Assembly (NCBI RefSeq): GCF_003018235.1
Contig: NZ_CP027437.1
Strand: one strand, 5' to 3'
Length of the DNA stretch: 64,000 nucleotides
Source: Escherichia coli
GTDB taxonomy: Bacteria > Pseudomonadota > Gammaproteobacteria > Enterobacterales > Enterobacteriaceae
A program made the position numbers and the translations under genes. Positions 1,938 to 58,660 of this stretch are shown piece by piece. How positions within the stretch are numbered: the stretch's first letter is position 1; each line of letters begins with the position of its first letter. The notes beneath the pieces were generated by a model. That model saw only the letters and a program-made list of their open reading frames with translations. It was not told the DNA's origin and ran no database searches.

Positions 1938-3142
1938 TAATCCACCAATAATTCCAGCGCGCGGTCAACGGCATTCACCAGCGCATCCACATCACTCTTT
2001 GTATTATATGGCGCAAAAGAGGCGCGCAGTGTGCCGGTTACGCCTAATTCTGCCAGTAGCGGCTGAGCGCAATGCTGCCCGGCCCGCAGGGCAATACCGT
2101 ACTCCGCCAGCAGCGTCACCATATCGCTGTGATGAACGCCAGCAAAATCAAAGGCCAGCAGGCTGGAATCCTGGCAGCGAAATGAGCGGAAGCCAGGACG
2201 TTTTGCCAGCGCATCTTCCGCCAGCGTTGCTAAGCTACGGCTCCAGCTTTCGGCCTGGTTGATATCGTAATCTGCCAGCCATTCCAGCGCCGCGCTTAAT
2301 CCTATGACACCAGCGACATTTGGCGTTCCGGCTTCCAGTTTCCACGGCGCAGATTGAGTCGTGAAGCCGTCAAAACTCACTTCGTGAATCATTTTGCCGC
2401 CACCCAGCCAGGGTGACATCGCTTCCAGCAGTTCTGATTTGCCATACAGCACGCCGATACCCGTCGGGCCATACAGTTTGTGACCAGAGAAAGCATAGAA
2501 ATCAATATCCAGTTGCTGAACATCCGCAGGGAAATGCACCGCCCCCTGAGCACCATCAACCATCACCACCATCCCGGCTGAATGAGCAAAGGTAATCGCT
2601 CGCGCCAGATCCGGGCAACCGCCAGTGACGTTCGACATTTGTCCCAGAGCAAGAATTCGACTACGAGGTGTGATCAGTTCTGGCAACAAATCGACATCCG
2701 GCAATCGCTGCGCATTAAGCGGCAATTTCACCACTTTGGCTCCCGTTTGTTGGGCGACCATCAGCCAGGGGACGAGGTTAGCGTGGTGTTCTGCCACGCT
2801 GACAATAATCTCATCGCCCGGTTGCAGACGCGGACGCGCATAGCATTGTGCCACCATGTTGATGGATTCAGTGGTGCCGCGCGTCCAGACGATAGTTTTA
2901 TCATCCGGTGCATTCAGTAATTGCGCCACTTTCTCTCGTGCAGCTTCATAACGCGCGGTCAGGCGTTGGGCTTCGGCAAACTGGCTGCGATGGACGTTTC
3001 CGGCGCTCAGGCTGTAAAACTGTCGAGTGGCTTCAACCACGGCTTCAGGTTTAAGCGCGGTCGCGGCGCTGTCGAGATAGACGCCCGCATCCTGTAGCGC
3101 GGGAAACTGGGCGCGAAACTGCGCGGGATTAAAAACGTTCAT
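1937..3142 (-). CDS. csdA: Cysteine desulfurase CsdA (PLP-dependent aminotransferase class V)
   Basis: Track ORF 1937..3178; I place the start at the internal ATG (rc of cat at 3140-3142) giving MNVFNPAQF... and 401 aa, the length I recall for CsdA. Confidence 0.88.
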
Positions 3143-3333
3143 GGTACTCCTCGGCTTGATGCACCGATCGTGACGCAAAATTCACTTTGATACAAGGAGG
3201 GTGCTAACCATCAGAATTATCTGGATATCCTGGCGAAGCCGCGTCAGTAACATATGCTGAATAGTGTTAGGCGTTAATTTTAGCCTGTTAATCAATACTA
3301 TTAAGATTTATTAATCGCTTTAAGGAGAAGATG

Positions 3334-3561
3334 ATGAAAAAGACTGCCGCAATTATTTCTGCCTGTATGCTGACTTTTGCCCTGAGCGCCTGTTCCGGTT
3401 CGAACTATGTGATGCACACCAATGACGGACGTACCATCGTCTCTGACGGCAAACCACAGACTGATAACGATACCGGTATGATTTCGTATAAAGACGCTAA
3501 TGGCAACAAACAGCAGATCAACCGTACCGACGTGAAAGAGATGGTCGAACTGGATCAGTAA
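3334..3561 (+). CDS. ygdI: Small lipoprotein (DUF903 family)
   Basis: 75-aa ORF with signal peptide and lipobox LSAC; tandem ATG, second one chosen; located between csdA and gcvB. Confidence 0.8.
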
Positions 3562-3577
3562 TTCGCGATCGCAAGGT

Positions 3578-3783
3578 AAAAAAAAGCACCGCAATTAGGC
3601 GGTGCTACATTAATCACTATGGACAGACAGGGTAAATGTACAGGAAGTGAAAAAAGGTAGCTTTGCTACCATGGTCTGAATCGCAGACCAATTGCAAACA
3701 CAACAACACAACATCACAACCGTAAGCCAAAAGTTCACCAGAACACGCATTCCGATAAAACTTTTCGTTCCGGCTCAGGAAGT
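3578..3783 (-). ncRNA. gcvB: GcvB small regulatory RNA (Hfq-dependent, represses amino-acid transporter mRNAs)
   Basis: The reverse complement of this interval reads ACTTCCTGAGCCGGAACGAAAAGTTTTATCGG...GT-rich stretch TGTGATGTTGTGTTGTTGTGTTTG...terminator hairpin GCACCGCCTAATTGCGGTGC followed by a T-run, matching the gcvB sequence as I remember it; it is divergent from gcvA as expected and 206 nt long. Confidence 0.9.
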
Positions 3784-3911
3784 GCCGCCACTATAGGTAT
3801 TTGCTGGTAGAAGCTCAACGGACAATTTATAATGGCTCAGATTAAAAAAACTAATAGGTTACACAGTGTGATCTAATTGTTAAATTCATTTAACATCAAA
3901 GTTTAAAAGCC

Positions 3912-4829
3912 ATGTCTAAACGATTACCACCGCTAAATGCCTTACGAGTTTTTGATGCCGCAGCACGCCATTTAAGTTTCACTCGCGCAGCAGAAGAGCT
4001 TTTTGTGACCCAGGCCGCAGTAAGTCATCAAATCAAGTCTCTTGAGGATTTTCTGGGGCTAAAACTATTCCGCCGCCGTAATCGTTCACTCCTGCTGACC
4101 GAGGAAGGTCAAAGCTATTTCCTCGATATCAAAGAGATATTTTCGCAATTAACCGAAGCGACGCGTAAACTCCAGGCCCGTAGCGCCAAGGGGGCGTTGA
4201 CGGTCAGTTTACTCCCCAGTTTCGCCATTCATTGGTTGGTTCCGCGACTTTCCAGCTTTAATTCAGCTTATCCGGGAATTGACGTTCGAATCCAGGCGGT
4301 TGATCGTCAGGAAGATAAGCTGGCGGATGATGTTGATGTGGCGATATTTTATGGTCGGGGCAACTGGCCGGGGCTACGGGTGGAAAAACTGTACGCCGAA
4401 TATTTATTGCCGGTGTGTTCGCCGCTACTGCTGACTGGCGAAAAACCCTTGAAGACCCCGGAAGATCTGGCTAAACATACGTTATTACATGATGCGTCAC
4501 GCCGTGACTGGCAGACATATACTCGCCAATTGGGGTTAAATCATATCAACGTTCAGCAAGGGCCAATTTTTAGCCATAGCGCCATGGTGCTGCAAGCGGC
4601 TATTCACGGGCAGGGAGTGGCGCTGGCAAATAACGTGATGGCGCAATCTGAAATCGAGGCCGGACGTCTTGTTTGCCCGTTTAATGATGTTCTGGTCAGT
4701 AAAAATGCTTTTTATCTGGTTTGTCATGACAGTCAGGCAGAACTGGGTAAAATAGCCGCCTTTCGCCAATGGATCCTGGCGAAAGCCGCTGCTGAACAAG
4801 AAAAATTCCGCTTTCGTTATGAACAATAA
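3912..4829 (+). CDS. gcvA: LysR-family transcriptional regulator of the glycine cleavage system
   Basis: 305-aa ORF with an N-terminal LysR helix-turn-helix (LNALRVFDAAARHLSFTRAAEELFVTQAAVSHQIKSLE); divergent from gcvB. Confidence 0.92.
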   Translation: MSKRLPPLNALRVFDAAARHLSFTRAAEELFVTQAAVSHQIKSLEDFLGLKLFRRRNRSLLLTEEGQSYFLDIKEIFSQLTEATRKLQARSAKGALTVSLLPSFAIHWLVPRLSSFNSAYPGIDVRIQAVDRQEDKLADDVDVAIFYGRGNWPGLRVEKLYAEYLLPVCSPLLLTGEKPLKTPEDLAKHTLLHDASRRDWQTYTRQLGLNHINVQQGPIFSHSAMVLQAAIHGQGVALANNVMAQSEIEAGRLVCPFNDVLVSKNAFYLVCHDSQAELGKIAAFRQWILAKAAAEQEKFRFRYEQ

Positions 4830-14718: not shown

Positions 14719-16952
<2,234 letters not shown>

Positions 16953-17009
16953 AGGAAATACATCGCGTTAAAACGGAGGAAGCGCCGCCCGAAAGCGGCG
17001 CGAAAGGAC

Positions 17010-18299
17010 TTAGCTGAACAGAGAGTAGAAGATTGCGGAGATTGCAATCAGACCCATCACGACAACGAATACGTTGCTGATGTGACCGCTGTACTTACGC
17101 ATTGCCGGTACTTTCTGAATTGCGTACATCGGCATCAGGAACAGGATCATCGCGATGATTGGGCCGCCCAGGGTTTCAATCATACCCAGGATGCTCGGGT
17201 TCAGGGTGGCAACAATCCAGGTCGTTACCAGCATGAACAGCGCAGTGATACGGTTCAGCTTGTTGATTTCGATAGACTTACCTTTACCACGCAGAGATTT
17301 AATCACCATACCGTTGAAGCCTTCACGTGCGCCCAGGTAGTGGCCGAGGAAGGATTTGGTGATAGCGATAATCGCGATAATCGGAGCCATCCACGCGATA
17401 ACCGGTGCGTTAAAGTGGTTAGCCAGGTAAGACAGAATCGAGATGTTCTGCTCTTTAGCCGCAGCCAGGTCTGCCGGAGTCAGGCTCAGTACGCAGCTGA
17501 AGACGAAGAACATTACGGTCAGCACCATCATGATGTGTGCGAATGCCAGGATCTTCGAACATTTCTGTTCTGCCATATCGCCGTACTCTTCACGCTTCGC
17601 AACGGCGAAAGAAGAGATGATCGGAGAGTGGTTGAACGAGAACACCATTACCGGAATTGCCAGCCACAGGGTCATCCACAGACCGTTTCCGGTTGCAGAT
17701 GCAGTGTCCAGAGACAGCGTTTCCAGTGCTGCGCCGTTCCACTGCGGGATCAGGTACAGAGCCAGCAGCATCAGTACGCCAACAAACGGGAATACCAGAA
17801 TACTCATCGCTTTAACGATCATCTGCTCACCGAAGCGAACGATGGTCATCATACCCACGATCAGGATCAGCGACAGAATCGCACGCGGCGGTGGCGTCAT
17901 ACCCAGCTGGTGAGACATGAAGCTTTCAACTGTATTGGTGATTGCCACGCTATAAACCAGCAGGATCGGGTAGATAGCGAAGAAGTAGAGCAGGGTAATC
18001 AGTTTACCTGCGCCAATACCAAAGTGTTCTTCTACAACCTCGGTGATGTCTTCGCCCGGGTTTTTACCAGACAGTACGAAGCGAGTCAGACCGCGGTGAG
18101 CAAAAAATGTCATCGGGAACGCAAGGATAGCCATGATGATCAGCGGGATCATACCGCCAACACCGGCGTTGATTGGCAGGAACAGCACGCCCGCGCCGAT
18201 TGCCGTGCCGTAAAGGCCCAGCATCCACATGGTGTCTGTCTTGCGCCAGGCACTACGAGAGTCTTTCGACGCAATCGTGCTGGTTTGAGTCGTTTCCAT
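17010..18299 (-). CDS. sdaC: Serine:H+ symporter (HAAAP family)
   Basis: 429-aa polytopic membrane ORF. Confidence 0.92.
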
Positions 18300-21245: not shown

Positions 21246-21791
21246 GTGGACGATTTGACCGCACAAGCCCTGAAAGATTTTACTGCACGCTACTGCGATG
21301 CGTGGAATGAAGAGCATAAAAGCTGGCCGTTGAGTGAGGAACTGTACGGCGTTCCTTCACCGTGCATTATTTCAACCACCGAAGACGCCGTATACTGGCA
21401 ACCCCAGCCGTTTACCGGGGAACAAAATGTAAACGCGGTTGAACGCGCTTTTGATATTGTGATACAACCCACAATTCATACCTTTTATACGACTCAGTTT
21501 GCCGGGGATATGCACGCGCAGTTTGGCGATATTAAACTGACATTGCTGCAAACCTGGAGTGAAGACGACTTCCGTCGGGTGCAGGAAAATCTGATTGGTC
21601 ATCTGGTGACTCAGAAAAGGCTAAAACTGCCGCCCACGCTATTTATCGCGACGCTGGAAGAAGAGTTAGAGGTGATCTCGGTGTGTAATCTCTCCGGTGA
21701 AGTGTGCAAAGAGACGCTGGGAACACGTAAACGGACGCATTTAGCCTCAAATCTTGCGGAATTCCTTAATCAACTTAAGCCTCTTCTGTAA
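21246..21791 (+). CDS. syd: SecY-interacting protein Syd
   Basis: 181-aa ORF starting at GTG 21246. Confidence 0.9.
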
Positions 21792-21810
21792 TCCAAATAC
21801 CCCATCTGGT

Positions 21811-21828
21811 TGTGAGAGATCTCTTACA
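21811..21828. promoter_or_regulatory. UvrY (BarA/UvrY two-component response regulator) binding palindrome upstream of csrB
   Basis: Perfect 18-bp inverted repeat TGTGAGAGATCTCTTACA about 175 bp upstream of the csrB start; this is the type of site described for UvrY/SirA at csrB. Confidence 0.6.
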
Positions 21829-22001
21829 GACTCTGTAGGAGATCGCCAGGAAATAAGCGAATACTTAAAAAGATAAGAATCGTTATTTTCATTTAAAATC
21901 AATATATTGCTTGTCAATTCTTAACTTTCATATGAAATTTTCCTTAAGGCATTGTCTGTAAGCGCCTTGTAAGACTTCGCGAAAAAGACGATTCTATCTT
22001 C

Positions 22002-22367
22002 GTCGACAGGGAGTCAGACAACGAAGTGAACATCAGGATGATGACACTTCTGAAGGACACACCAGGATGGTGTTTCAGGGAAAGGCTTCTGGATGAAGCG
22101 AAGAGGATGACGCAGGACGCGTTAAAGGACACCTCCAGGATGGAGAATGAGAACCGGTCAGGATGATTCGGTGGGTCAGGAAGGCTAGGGACACTTCAGG
22201 ATGAAGTATCACATCGGGGTGGTGTGAGCAGGAAGCAATAGTTCAGGATGAACGATTGGCCGCAAGGCCAGAGGAAAAGTTGTCAAGGATGAGCAGGGAG
22301 CAACAAAAGTAGCTGGAATGCTGCGAAACGAACCGGGAGCACTGTGAATACAGTGCTCCCTTTTTTT
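22002..22367 (+). ncRNA. csrB: CsrB regulatory RNA (CsrA-sequestering sRNA)
   Basis: About 365 nt with no long ORF, carrying roughly twenty GGA-containing motifs (I count about 22 by eye, many as CAGGATG), ending in hairpin GGGAGCACTG-TGAATA-CAGTGCTCCC plus T7. The 5' end is placed from my recollection of the csrB sequence. Confidence 0.88.
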
Positions 22368-22412
22368 ATTCCTGCTATCCTTCGCGGCAGTTTTTCTTAT
22401 TGAGGTTGCTTT

Positions 22413-22742
22413 ATGACCACTCATGACCGCGTTCGTCTCCAGCTGCAGGCGCTTGAAGCATTACTGCGTGAACATCAGCACTGGCAAAACGATGAACCCC
22501 AGCCGCATCAATTTAACAGTACCCAACCGTTCTTTATGGACACCATGGAACCACTGGAGTGGTTGCAGTGGGTGCTGATCCCGCGAATGCACGATTTGTT
22601 AGATAACAACCAGCCGTTACCGGGCGCTTTTGCCGTCGCACCCTATTATGAAATGGCGCTGGCGACGGACCACCCGCAACGCGCGCTTATTCTGGCTGAG
22701 CTGGAAAAACTGGATGCTCTTTTTGCGGATGATGCGAGCTAA
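22413..22742 (+). CDS. yqcC: DUF446 family protein
   Basis: 109-aa ORF directly upstream of and coupled to truC. Confidence 0.85.
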   Translation: MTTHDRVRLQLQALEALLREHQHWQNDEPQPHQFNSTQPFFMDTMEPLEWLQWVLIPRMHDLLDNNQPLPGAFAVAPYYEMALATDHPQRALILAELEKLDALFADDAS

Positions 22743-28721: not shown

Positions 28722-31478
28722 TTACCCGAGAATTTTGCTGGCTTCGCGCGCGACATTATCCATCTCGTCCAACAGTTCCAGCAGCTCCGGCTCCAAATCT
28801 TCTTCTTTAGTACCGCTACGTAGCTGTTGTTCGATCAGCTGGCAGAGATTCTTCATACGCGGCACACCGCTATAGCCGCAACTGCCATGCAGTTTATGAA
28901 TCAAATCAACCAGGCCTTCCGGGTTTTCTCCAACCAGCTGTTCCTCAACTTTGTTGCGAACTTCAGGCAGGAAATCGAGTAACATTTGCAGCATATCGCG
29001 CGCTAAATCGGTTTTTCCTGCTGCCTGGCGTAGTGCCAGTTGCCAGTCGAGGGTCGCATTCGGGTTCACCACAATTTCGTTGACTTCGGGCGTCACGACG
29101 CGAGAGGAAATACCGCTGCCAGGCTTGTAGCGCAACAGCAAATTATGCAATCGCTCTTCTTCAATCGGTTTCGCCAGATAATCGCTCATCCCTGCGCCAA
29201 GCAGCTTCTCTTTTTGCCCGGCCATTGCATGCGCCGTTACCGCGATAACCGGCGTTTGTTGCTGATGGGGGAGCTGGTGGATGAGTTCGCAGGCCCGAAT
29301 GCCGTCCATGTCCGGCATTTGAATATCCATTAAGATCAAATCGAACGGCATCTGTTTCGCCCGTTCAACCGCCTGATGCCCGCTATCGCAAAGTTCCACA
29401 TGTTGCACCATATCTTCCAGCAATGCGCCGATAAGTTTCAGGTTAGCGGGGTTGTCATCAACCGCCATGACTGTCATTGCCAGCTTACTTTCATCGGTTA
29501 CAGGCAAAAGCGTGTTTTGTTTGTGATGACAAAATTCCGTCAGGGCAGGTAACAGGCGCGTAGGTGTTAATGGTTTCAGCAGACACGCGCCGATACCATC
29601 TTGCTTAAGTTTTTCAGCATTGACTTGTGCATGGCAAGGAAGTGCCAGCATCAGAAAATCGGTCATCGATACCGCTTTCGCTAATCGCTCATGTTGCATT
29701 GTTAGCGGCTCGCGGAAGGTCACCGCAATGCCTAATAACATCATGTCGTAATGCGCGGGAGGCAGCGCGGAGAACGTTGGGCTATAAACCACTTCCAGCG
29801 GCGTTTCACTTAAAATATCCAGCGTGCATTGCGCTGCTGCGGAGTTTGGTTCGACATAGGCCAGGCGCTTGCCGGCGAGGCACTGGGTGGATGGCCCTTC
29901 GATAATAATGTTCGGATTCAGATCGAGATTAATGTGGAACCAGAAAGTTGAACCGCGATTCGGCTGGCTATGGAACGAAATATCGCCGCCCATTTCATTA
30001 ACCAGTTTTTGTGTAATCACCAGCCCCAGCCCGGTGCCACCATGACGGCGGGAAATACTGGCATCAGCCTGTCGGAAGGCCTGGAATAAGCGCGATTGAT
30101 CGCGTTCAGGAATACCAATGCCGGTATCCCGAATCTGCACTTCAATCTGCACTTTGGTATTACTCAGCGCACGTTTTTCTACCAGAATATCAATGTTGCC
30201 ATTCTCGGTGAATTTAATTGCATTCCCCACCAGGTTAGTGATGATTTGCTGTAATCGTAGTGGGTCGCCGATCACGTTATCAGGCACGTCGCTTTTAATA
30301 TTGAGCGTCAGTTCCAGCCCTTTATCGTGAGAAGAATGTGCCAGCAGGGTAACGACTTCATCCAGCGTGCTGCGTAGTGGGAATGGAATACTTTCCAGAA
30401 TCAGCTTACCGGCTTCCAGTTTCGAGAAGTCGAGAACATCATTAATAATTGCCAGCAAATTATTTGCCGAACGTTCAATCGTATTCAGGTGATCGCGCTG
30501 CGTTGGTGTTAATTCTGTTTTCAGCGTCAGGCGGGTAAAGCCAATAACACCATTCAGTGGTGTACGCAGCTCGTGTGACATATTTGCCAAAAACTCGGAT
30601 TTAATACGCGCCGCTTCCTGGGCGCGCTTTTTCGCCAGATCCAACTCAACGTTCTGAATTTCCATCTGCTCCAGCGTTTCACGCAGATCGGACGTCGCCT
30701 GGTCGATATTGTGCTGCATCTCTTCGTGATAAGCAGCCAGCGACATTGCCATCGAGTTGATACCGTTTTTCAGCATATCCAGCTCGCCGAGCATAAATCC
30801 TTCCACCCGGCTGTCGAGTTGCCCGCGACGGATGCGGTCGACGGTATTCACCATATTGCGAATCGGACCGGTTACATCGCGCATTAAGCGCCAGCCAAAA
30901 ATAAGCGCAATACCGATACAAAACAGCATCATCACGCTGGAAATAAAGATCTCTTTATATTGCTGCAAGCGAACCGATTTAAGATCCAGCTCAAGCGCAA
31001 TATATCCCAACATATTTTGACTATTTTTGGCATCGCTACTGGGCGATTCGTCGGGGGAGTAACTCTCAGAAATAATCGGTGTGCGGAGGATCATAATATC
31101 GCCGTCACGAGTGACAGTGAGCTGGCGAGGAAACGGCACGTTGCTGCCGAGCTGCATTGATGAGGGATCAAGATGAAAATTGGAGGTGACAAAGAGTCGA
31201 TTATTTTCATCATAAACCGAAATCGCGCGAACAATATCGGAATGGCGACGATGCAGTACGCTTATTAACTGACCGATAGATTCGCGATTTTGCAGGCTCA
31301 TGCCATATTCAGTAGAAACTGCAAGCGGCTCAATAATGCTGGCTCCGGCATCTTCCAGTTGACGCTGCAAGTCGTTATAGCGATGCACAACGAAAAAGAT
31401 ACTCAGCAATAAACCAATAAGGACGGTCGGTGCCAGGATCAGAATCATCATGCGTGCGCGCAGGCTGTAGTTGGTCAT
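28722..31478 (-). CDS. barA: Hybrid sensor histidine kinase BarA (tripartite HK with receiver and HPt domains)
   Basis: 918-aa ORF with two N-terminal TM segments, HAMP, HisKA (H-box SHELRTPLN), ATPase, receiver and HPt domains. Confidence 0.93.
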
Positions 31479-58298: not shown

Positions 58299-58507
58299 TG
58301 CGAGCAGCATTCCTGATTTTAAACGTGAACGCCGCTGGAAGAATCAACAGGTATAGAATGGTGTCGGGTGCTTGAGGCTGTCTGGCGTTAAGCATTCGCG
58401 AGGTTCCAGATGGACAAAAGCCCCAGGCGATATTTCTATCAACCTGAGGCCAGCGTTCGAACCCAAACAATTCGAATGTTAGTCTCTTCTTTGCAGGGAG
58501 GCAAGAC

Positions 58508-58660
58508 ATGCTGACAAAATATGCCCTTGTGGCAATCATAGTGCTGTGTTTTACAGTACTGGGATTCACGCTGATGGTAGGCGACTCGTTGTGTGAGTTG
58601 AGTATCAGAGAACGTGGTATGGAGTTTAAGGCAGTTCTCGCTTACGAATCGAAGAAGTAG
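58508..58660 (+). CDS. hokX: Hok-family type I toxin (small membrane-depolarising peptide), positionally the hokX/sokX locus
   Basis: 50-codon ORF absent from the ORF track (under 60 aa): [50 protein letters not shown], with a single TM helix, the Hok signature DSLCE and C-terminal AYES; Shine-Dalgarno GGAGG 6 nt upstream. The symbol is inferred from position next to cysH. Confidence 0.8.

Follow-up and report, generated by a model that had tools for sequence, protein, structure and literature searches.

The window analysed here, a 64-kb stretch of Escherichia coli DNA taken at its full length of 64,000 nucleotides, carries csrB, the gene of the CsrA-sequestering small RNA CsrB, together with its upstream activating region and, further downstream on the opposite strand, the gene of the sensor kinase BarA. 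The interval 21811-22367 is almost certainly an ordinary E. coli csrB locus preceded by its activating region. Read from 21500 to 22700, the DNA presents the stop codon of syd (21789-21791), the inverted repeat TGTGAGAGATCTCTTACA, an AT-rich stretch, a GGA-rich segment that closes with GGGAGCACTGTGAATACAGTGCTCCC followed by seven T, and the next start codon at 22413. The individual features are given below, with positions counted from the first letter of the window and promoter positions relative to the csrB start at 22002.

21811-21828, no strand assigned: UvrY-P binding site by identity to the sequence footprinted in K-12, an 18-bp nearly perfect inverted repeat (TGTGAGAGATCTCTTACA)
21834-21842, plus strand: third UvrY half-site (TGTAGGAGA), 5 bp downstream of the inverted repeat
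21897-21909, plus strand: putative IHF site (AATCAATATATTG, matching WATCAANNNNTTR), at -105 to -93, coordinates inferred
21967-21972, plus strand: candidate -35 hexamer, TTGTAA, from orthologue conservation
21990-21995, plus strand: candidate -10 hexamer, GATTCT, at -12 to -7, from conservation and the K-12 +1 position
22002-22370, plus strand: csrB, a 369-nt CsrA-sequestering sRNA, with the coordinates of the K-12 ncRNA b4408 transferred by alignment
22335-22367, plus strand: csrB intrinsic terminator, with a perfect 11-bp stem, a 4-nt loop and seven T
28722-31478, minus strand: barA, the tripartite sensor kinase that phosphorylates UvrY, an equivalog of NCBIfam NF008318 of 918 aa

The csrB gene and its transcript

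The RNA gene is recognized by the CsrB/RsmB model of Rfam (RF00018), which matches the plus strand at 22011-22370 over its full length (model positions 1-356 of 356) with 380.9 bits against a gathering score of 71 (E 8.5e-111), the sole match to this family in an Rfam scan of the whole 64-kb window. The GGA motif occurs 22 times within csrB, 14 of these as AGGA and 6 as CAGGAUG, which amounts to a density of approximately 60 per kb compared to approximately 14 per kb on the plus strand of the whole window and to the 12.4 per kb predicted for the window from its mononucleotide composition. Both the GGA count and the 369-nt length equal the figures published for E. coli CsrB (369 nt and 22 GGA sequences; PMC5027483). 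The stem of the intrinsic terminator spans 22335-22360 and is followed directly by the run of seven T. A preliminary description of this DNA had identified csrB from its GGA repeats and terminator, and the Rfam score, the 22 motifs and the perfect 11-bp stem bear this out; the interval that it had marked out (21811-22367) holds the regulatory region as well as the gene, and the RNA itself begins only some 190 bp in, at 22002.

The gene resembles csrB of K-12 MG1655 (b4408) in its length of 369 nt, its 22 GGA motifs, its neighbors (syd upstream and yqcC downstream) and its terminator, and the two are identical at 366 of 369 bases (99.2%). At the first of the three substitutions, 22053, the window bears A where K-12 bears C, giving AAGGA instead of CAGGA with the GGA kept. 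At 22186, a T in place of the K-12 C converts the basal pair of a 4-bp stem, which presents AGGAA, from G-C to G-U, while at 22341 an A in place of G forms an A-U pair where K-12 has G-U, and the terminator stem is thereby perfect. T22186 is rare: of 5,417 complete E. coli genomes, just three (FDAARGOS_944 and two isolates from pigeons, PT62 and LP5-1) contain the exact 61-mer that bears it. This change is probably neutral, because the same G-U pair occurs in 7 of 33 aligned sequences (the window included). The binding and sequestration of CsrA have been shown for K-12 CsrB (PMC5027483) and, at 99.2% identity, would be expected of the RNA encoded in the window.

In the minimum-energy fold of the window csrB, 11 of the 22 GGA motifs are presented in hairpin loops; the remainder lie mostly in single-stranded linkers, with one inside the terminator stem. 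RNAalifold was run on 33 Enterobacteriaceae csrB orthologues in a plain MAFFT alignment that was not fitted to structure, and it returned the same series of short GGA-presenting hairpins, with 66 predicted pairs and compensatory changes at 25 of them. Four spurious long-range pairs that touched the U tail were dropped to leave 62 scored pairs, which show standard pairing in 98.0% of cells across the 33 orthologues compared to 33-53% when the 3′ partners are slid by 1-3 columns. Pairs changed on both sides number 25 as predicted and 3-7 with the partners slid in the same way. None of 500 shuffles attained any of the observed pairing measures, which are favored somewhat by the consensus structure having been predicted from the very alignment on which it was scored. 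The terminator stem (helix 13 of the consensus) also carries compensatory changes among the orthologues. The GGA motifs do, then, lie in hairpin loops, and the covariation in 33 orthologues backs these hairpins; this arrangement, together with the lack of a conserved open reading frame discussed below, favors a structured non-coding RNA.

It had further been supposed that the number of GGA motifs might differ subtly between strains. No such difference was seen in a sample of seven E. coli alleles, evenly spaced along the identity ranking of 5,425 genomes: each carries 22, and the same count is found in E. albertii and in six Citrobacter, while other genera range from 20 to 28. These data suggest that GGA number shifts by the duplication of units over genus-level time and not between strains. 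An extra GGUUUAYGGAUGAAC hairpin unit (alignment columns 271-287) is found in Enterobacter ENT03 and in Pseudescherichia vulneris, whose csrB genes are 386-387 nt long and contain 27 and 24 GGA motifs, respectively.

The window is chromosomal E. coli DNA: a 611-bp query around the locus found matches, at 95-99.8% identity, in all but one of the 5,426 complete genomes of the species. In 22 of the resulting 5,425 genomes, no one place covers 80% or more of the csrB locus, which puts natural csrB disruptions at about 0.4%. In E. coli MARGA_3 (NZ_CM170101.1; approximately 2745-4001 of the extracted locus L003), an IS3-family element splits csrB after the equivalent of 22093. One of the 5,448 matching places falls on a plasmid-typed record and may represent either a mis-assigned replicon or a plasmid-borne chromosomal fragment. 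The gene is left without annotation in most RefSeq genomes, and this is an annotation gap and not a biological difference.

Other loci were also encountered elsewhere in the window. The gene of the GcvB sRNA is located at 3578-3783 on the minus strand (Rfam RF00022, 199 bits, full model), and a hok/sok-type toxin-antitoxin locus is located on the plus strand at 58366-58660, between cysH-like and iap-like genes, where an Rfam sok match (RF01794, 111 bits, 58366-58523) is accompanied by a Hok-like ORF of 50 aa at 58508-58660 on the plus strand.

The UvrY site and the promoter region

The activating region opens with the inverted repeat TGTGAGAGATCTCTTACA, whose halves, TGTGAGAGA (half-site 1) and TCTCTTACA (half-site 2), together span -191 to -174. 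With +1 at 22002, the center of the repeat falls between 21819 (-183) and 21820 (-182), which is the published position. Indeed, Zere et al. 2015 (PMC4682653) describe the same 18 nt as a nearly perfect palindrome centered at -183/-182 in E. coli. In that work, ChIP-exo placed BarA-dependent UvrY crosslinking at -222 to -142 of csrB, phospho-UvrY protected the inverted repeat in DNase I footprinting, and the deletion of barA lowered in vivo binding of UvrY at csrB approximately 35-fold as measured by ChIP-PCR (PMC4682653). The window and K-12 are identical throughout 21790-21902, and they agree as well in the promoter-proximal sequence.

The preliminary description had referred to a perfect 18-bp palindrome of the kind bound by UvrY. 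Its assignment to UvrY stands and can be made more specific: the 18-mer is identical to the K-12 sequence footprinted with phospho-UvrY and lies at the same distance from the start, and, by this identity, the repeat is the mapped K-12 UvrY site itself. The binding of UvrY here, and its dependence on BarA, would carry over from the K-12 work on identical or nearly identical sequence. The word "perfect" does require correction, as only 8 of the 9 pairs are complementary, with the G at position 4 and the T at position 15 left unpaired (the reverse complement of TGTGAGAGATCTCTTACA reads TGTAAGAGATCTCTCACA), and Zere et al. 2015 likewise write "nearly perfect". Within the 64-kb window, 21811-21828 is the only match to TGTGAGAGATCTCTTACA at up to three mismatches (shuffle mean 0.03) and the only match to the degenerate box TGTRAGNNNNNNCTYACA at up to one mismatch (0 mismatches; shuffle mean 0.21), and a second UvrY box was not found in the window at either threshold.

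The third half-site (TGTAGGAGA) combines with half-site 2 to make a second, everted repeat with arms at 21818-21830 and 21832-21844. This element is the "partially conserved additional sequence" of PMC4682653, and it is conserved as TGTRRGAGATCGCC in the aligned orthologues.

The conservation of the palindrome was examined by taking the best match to the E. coli 18-mer within 400 nt upstream of each of 35 csrB copies. A box with 0-4 mismatches lies upstream of all 35 copies, the identical 18-mer being present in 27, and the center of the box, near -182, is located between -180 and -186 in 34. The single outlier in position, from Pseudocitrobacter, is an alignment artefact in which a split hit offset the estimate of the 5′ end. 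None of the 35 copies carries a perfect palindrome, the best again reaching 8 of 9 pairs, and this retained asymmetry could be due to phylogenetic inertia or indicate that an asymmetric site is preferred. The exact reverse complement of the E. coli 18-mer, TGTAAGAGATCTCTCACA, in which the asymmetry is kept and flipped, is found in Enterobacteriaceae strain RIT691 and in Enterobacter BIGb0383. In an uncultured Enterobacteriaceae MAG, csrB is duplicated in tandem (15981-16352 and 16670-17038 of locus L034), and each copy has its own UvrY-type repeat near -182 (TGTAAGATATCTCTCACA and TGTAGGAGATCTCTTACA).

Further toward the promoter, AATCAATATATTG is regarded as a putative IHF site for its match to the IHF consensus, WATCAANNNNTTR. 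Its CA(N5)TTR core (21900-21909) is kept in 31 of 33 orthologues. In PMC4682653, a putative IHF site is marked in the stretch that separates the distal from the proximal UvrY crosslink region. IHF is needed for csrB expression, and without it CsrB falls approximately 10-fold (PMC4682653). T21899 is replaced by A in some alleles (KE51, UID23 and STB20), which breaks the ATCAA core of the putative site.

The alignment of the upstream region (260 nt, 33 sequences) resolves into conserved islands formed by the repeat, TGTRRGAGATCGCC, the IHF core, CTTGTAAGAC (21966-21975) and GATTCTAT (21990-21997), with a free-running spacer between them. In the -35 region, all 33 orthologues keep the TTG and most of them read TTGTAAGAC, while GATTCTAT is nearly invariant. 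The candidate -35 and -10 hexamers that these islands point to are separated by 17 bp. A consensus promoter scan of 21700-22450 called no sigma-70 promoter, because the candidate -10 matches TATAAT weakly, and the absence of a consensus promoter fits one that is activator-dependent.

The first six bases of a UvrY half-site, TGTAAG, are found at 21968-21973, where they overlap the candidate -35 hexamer, and the TTGTAAGAC form is present in 25 of 33 Enterobacteriaceae orthologues; a second TGTAAG lies 13 bp upstream, at 21955-21960, in E. coli and Citrobacter. In K-12, UvrY crosslinks at -56 to +25 without a footprint, and the inverted repeat is not preserved there (Zere et al., PMC4682653). A lone half-site at the -35 region might be the cause of this proximal crosslink.

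Compared to K-12, the spacer of the window has four clustered differences (T21903, A21906, C21910 and C21915 in the window), of which two occupy N positions of the putative IHF site, the other two lying just downstream. This part of the locus is a local hot spot of E. coli polymorphism. The 90-mer at 21865-21954 is exact in 373 genomes, 95-99% identical in 3,314 and only 90-95% identical in 1,731 of the 5,418 matching genomes; by contrast, no matching genome falls below 95% identity over a 61-bp piece of csrB.

Linkage of csrB and barA

The assignment of 28722-31478 to barA rests on a score of 1623.9 bits with NF008318 against a cutoff of 890, the match extending over residues 1-917 of 918. 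From the 3′ end of csrB to the barA stop codon there are 6351 nt, in agreement with the distance of about 6 kb first noted for the two genes. The absence of the response regulator gene from the window was likewise confirmed, as a tblastn search of the 64 kb with K-12 UvrY gave only the receiver domain of BarA (28.6% identity); the possibility of uvrY or a paralogue within the window was rejected on this basis. The barA gene is convergent with the csrB-yqcC-truC-yqcA-gudPXD block, and the order ppnN-queF-syd-[csrB]-yqcC-truC-yqcA-gudP-gudX-gudD-barA-rlmD is that of K-12 MG1655 and of strain N3.

The extent of this linkage was surveyed by collecting loci that match BarA, each with up to 10 kb of flanking DNA, and searching them by nhmmer with the csrB of the window. 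A full-length csrB on the strand opposite to barA was recovered in 34 loci, one of them the MAG with two tandem copies (hence 35 copies). Where BarA is at least 70% identical, which corresponds to the level of the Enterobacteriaceae, csrB lies within 10 kb in 33 of 34 loci with full flanks, the single miss being Citrobacter gillenii; eight further loci at this level had too short a flank and were left out of the 34. The Enterobacteriaceae csrB is situated 1,669-8,944 nt past the barA stop codon, with a median of 7,312 nt, and is always convergent. The shortest gaps, of approximately 1.7 kb in E. albertii and strain RIT691, have room for just yqcC-truC-yqcA and lack the gud operon, so that this operon seems to have been either inserted later or lost.

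A different picture is obtained where BarA is 47-68% identical. Of the 12 loci with full flanks at this level, drawn from Erwinia, Mixta, Pantoea, Rahnella, Rouxiella, Yersinia, Edwardsiella and Moritella, a single one has csrB within 10 kb, that of Pantoea stewartii, at a distance of 9.5 kb. In the other 11 loci, nhmmer found no csrB within 10 kb of barA, and Rfam confirmed this for 10 of the 11, the negative for Moritella PE36 being that of nhmmer only. The linkage is real and old in one family and is not general to the BarA/UvrY-Csr circuit, and the proximity of the two genes looks like synteny inherited at the family level, not a shown function. A search of titles and abstracts for work on csrB-barA synteny returned nothing relevant to the Enterobacteriaceae.

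Alternative readings, proposed mechanism and known counterparts

Other readings of the locus may be weighed against that of an ordinary csrB gene with an upstream UvrY site, which none of the observations contradicts. Four mechanical ORFs of 45-71 aa overlap 21944-22424, and the interval might on that account code for a small protein instead of, or besides, a non-coding RNA; the likelihood of this is negligible. Any one frame is open with a start codon in just 0 to 3 of 32 orthologues, in half to three quarters of the orthologues the length changes by a number not divisible by three, and internal stops occur in most. The annotations of K-12 and strain N3 carry none of the four ORFs, and the pattern of substitution fits RNA stems. 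The coding hypothesis was accordingly rejected for want of conservation of the four ORFs. A subtler proposal concerns the repeats that follow the syd stop codon, which might act mainly as RNA, in the form of a terminator or a stabilizing 3′ hairpin of the syd mRNA, rather than as DNA to which UvrY binds. The RNA of 21818-21844, comprising half-sites 2 and 3, does fold to a 12-bp hairpin with a minimum free energy of -21.8 kcal/mol (z-score -2.66, with 1 of 200 shuffles as good). This hairpin begins 27 nt past the syd stop codon (21791), the two overlapping repeats lying 20-53 nt past it, and the orthologue variants of half-sites 2 and 3 can all still pair as RNA by means of G-U wobbles. However, the hairpin is not followed by a U tract and the terminator scan is empty at this place, while the 18-mer alone leaves no space for a loop. 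What is conserved is the sequence, identical in 27 of 35 copies, and the distance of the element is fixed relative to the csrB start and not to syd. Moreover, both an in vitro footprint of phospho-UvrY and in vivo crosslinking have been reported for this DNA (PMC4682653), and the footprint explains why the element is conserved. It is thus very unlikely that the repeats act chiefly as RNA, although the predicted hairpin may have a secondary role at the 3′ end of the syd mRNA.

The closeness of csrB and barA invites a functional explanation of its own, in which the two genes would be kept together by co-inheritance of sensor and target or by a local supply of UvrY-P near a membrane-tethered barA. 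Convergent linkage in 33 of 34 Enterobacteriaceae loci, despite the varying genes that intervene, is what such an explanation would lead one to expect. Yet just 1 of the 12 loci from outside the family is linked, though the BarA/UvrY-Csr circuit is common to all these organisms; csrB and barA are transcribed as separate, convergent units and have the unrelated housekeeping genes yqcC, truC and yqcA between them; and UvrY, which is diffusible, and its second target csrC are both encoded elsewhere. Conservation of core-genome order at the family level is, furthermore, the default expectation, and a functional basis for the proximity must be considered very unlikely. Slightly less probable still is the more specific idea that selection keeps csrB and barA convergent because the co-translational membrane insertion of BarA tethers the region near the place of UvrY phosphorylation. 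Were it true, tethering would speed the induction of csrB, and the linkage would be more than inherited gene order.

With the interval read as an ordinary csrB locus, and its proximity to barA as inherited synteny, a mechanism may be proposed for its activity. BarA, encoded 6.35 kb away, would phosphorylate UvrY, which is encoded elsewhere, and UvrY-P would bind the 18-bp inverted repeat at -183/-182 and probably also the adjacent third half-site. The presence of BarA, the synteny, and the identity and position of the UvrY site are established here. IHF, on which dependence is presumed by analogy with the K-12 experiments, would bend the AT-rich spacer at about -100 and so allow the distant activator to act on the promoter; the exact IHF site and the -35 and -10 hexamers are those placed by inference above. 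The promoter itself would be a weak sigma-70 promoter (TTGTAA, 17 bp, GATTCT). The RNA made from it, whose identity, structure and covariation are likewise established here, is a 369-nt transcript that would display 22 GGA motifs, roughly half in the loops of short hairpins, and these would titrate CsrA dimers off mRNAs, with transcription expected to stop at the strong intrinsic terminator.

BarA and the csrB gene, with its UvrY site and its need for IHF, are among the best-characterized parts of post-transcriptional regulation in E. coli. As csrB, the UvrY site and the location beside barA are all already known, there is nothing new in them, and the present analysis has little value as discovery; its value lies in confirmation, in the small correction that the palindrome is imperfect, and in the comparative details. 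The same logic of a GacA box, GGA hairpins and the titration of RsmA is displayed by rsmX, rsmY and rsmZ of Pseudomonas, at different loci and with shorter RNAs. Closer to hand, csrC shares with csrB an upstream TGTRAG...CTYACA box, multiple GGA hairpins and CsrA titration, but it resides at another locus, encodes a shorter RNA, has a much less symmetric repeat (TGTGAGACATTGCCGATA) and does not need IHF (PMC4682653). The counterpart of the upstream element is the csrB UvrY site of K-12 (Zere et al. 2015), a UvrY/SirA site of the GacA-box type, with which the window shares the 18-mer, its center and the third half-site 5 bp downstream; only the spacer differs, by its four clustered SNPs, while the site itself is unchanged.
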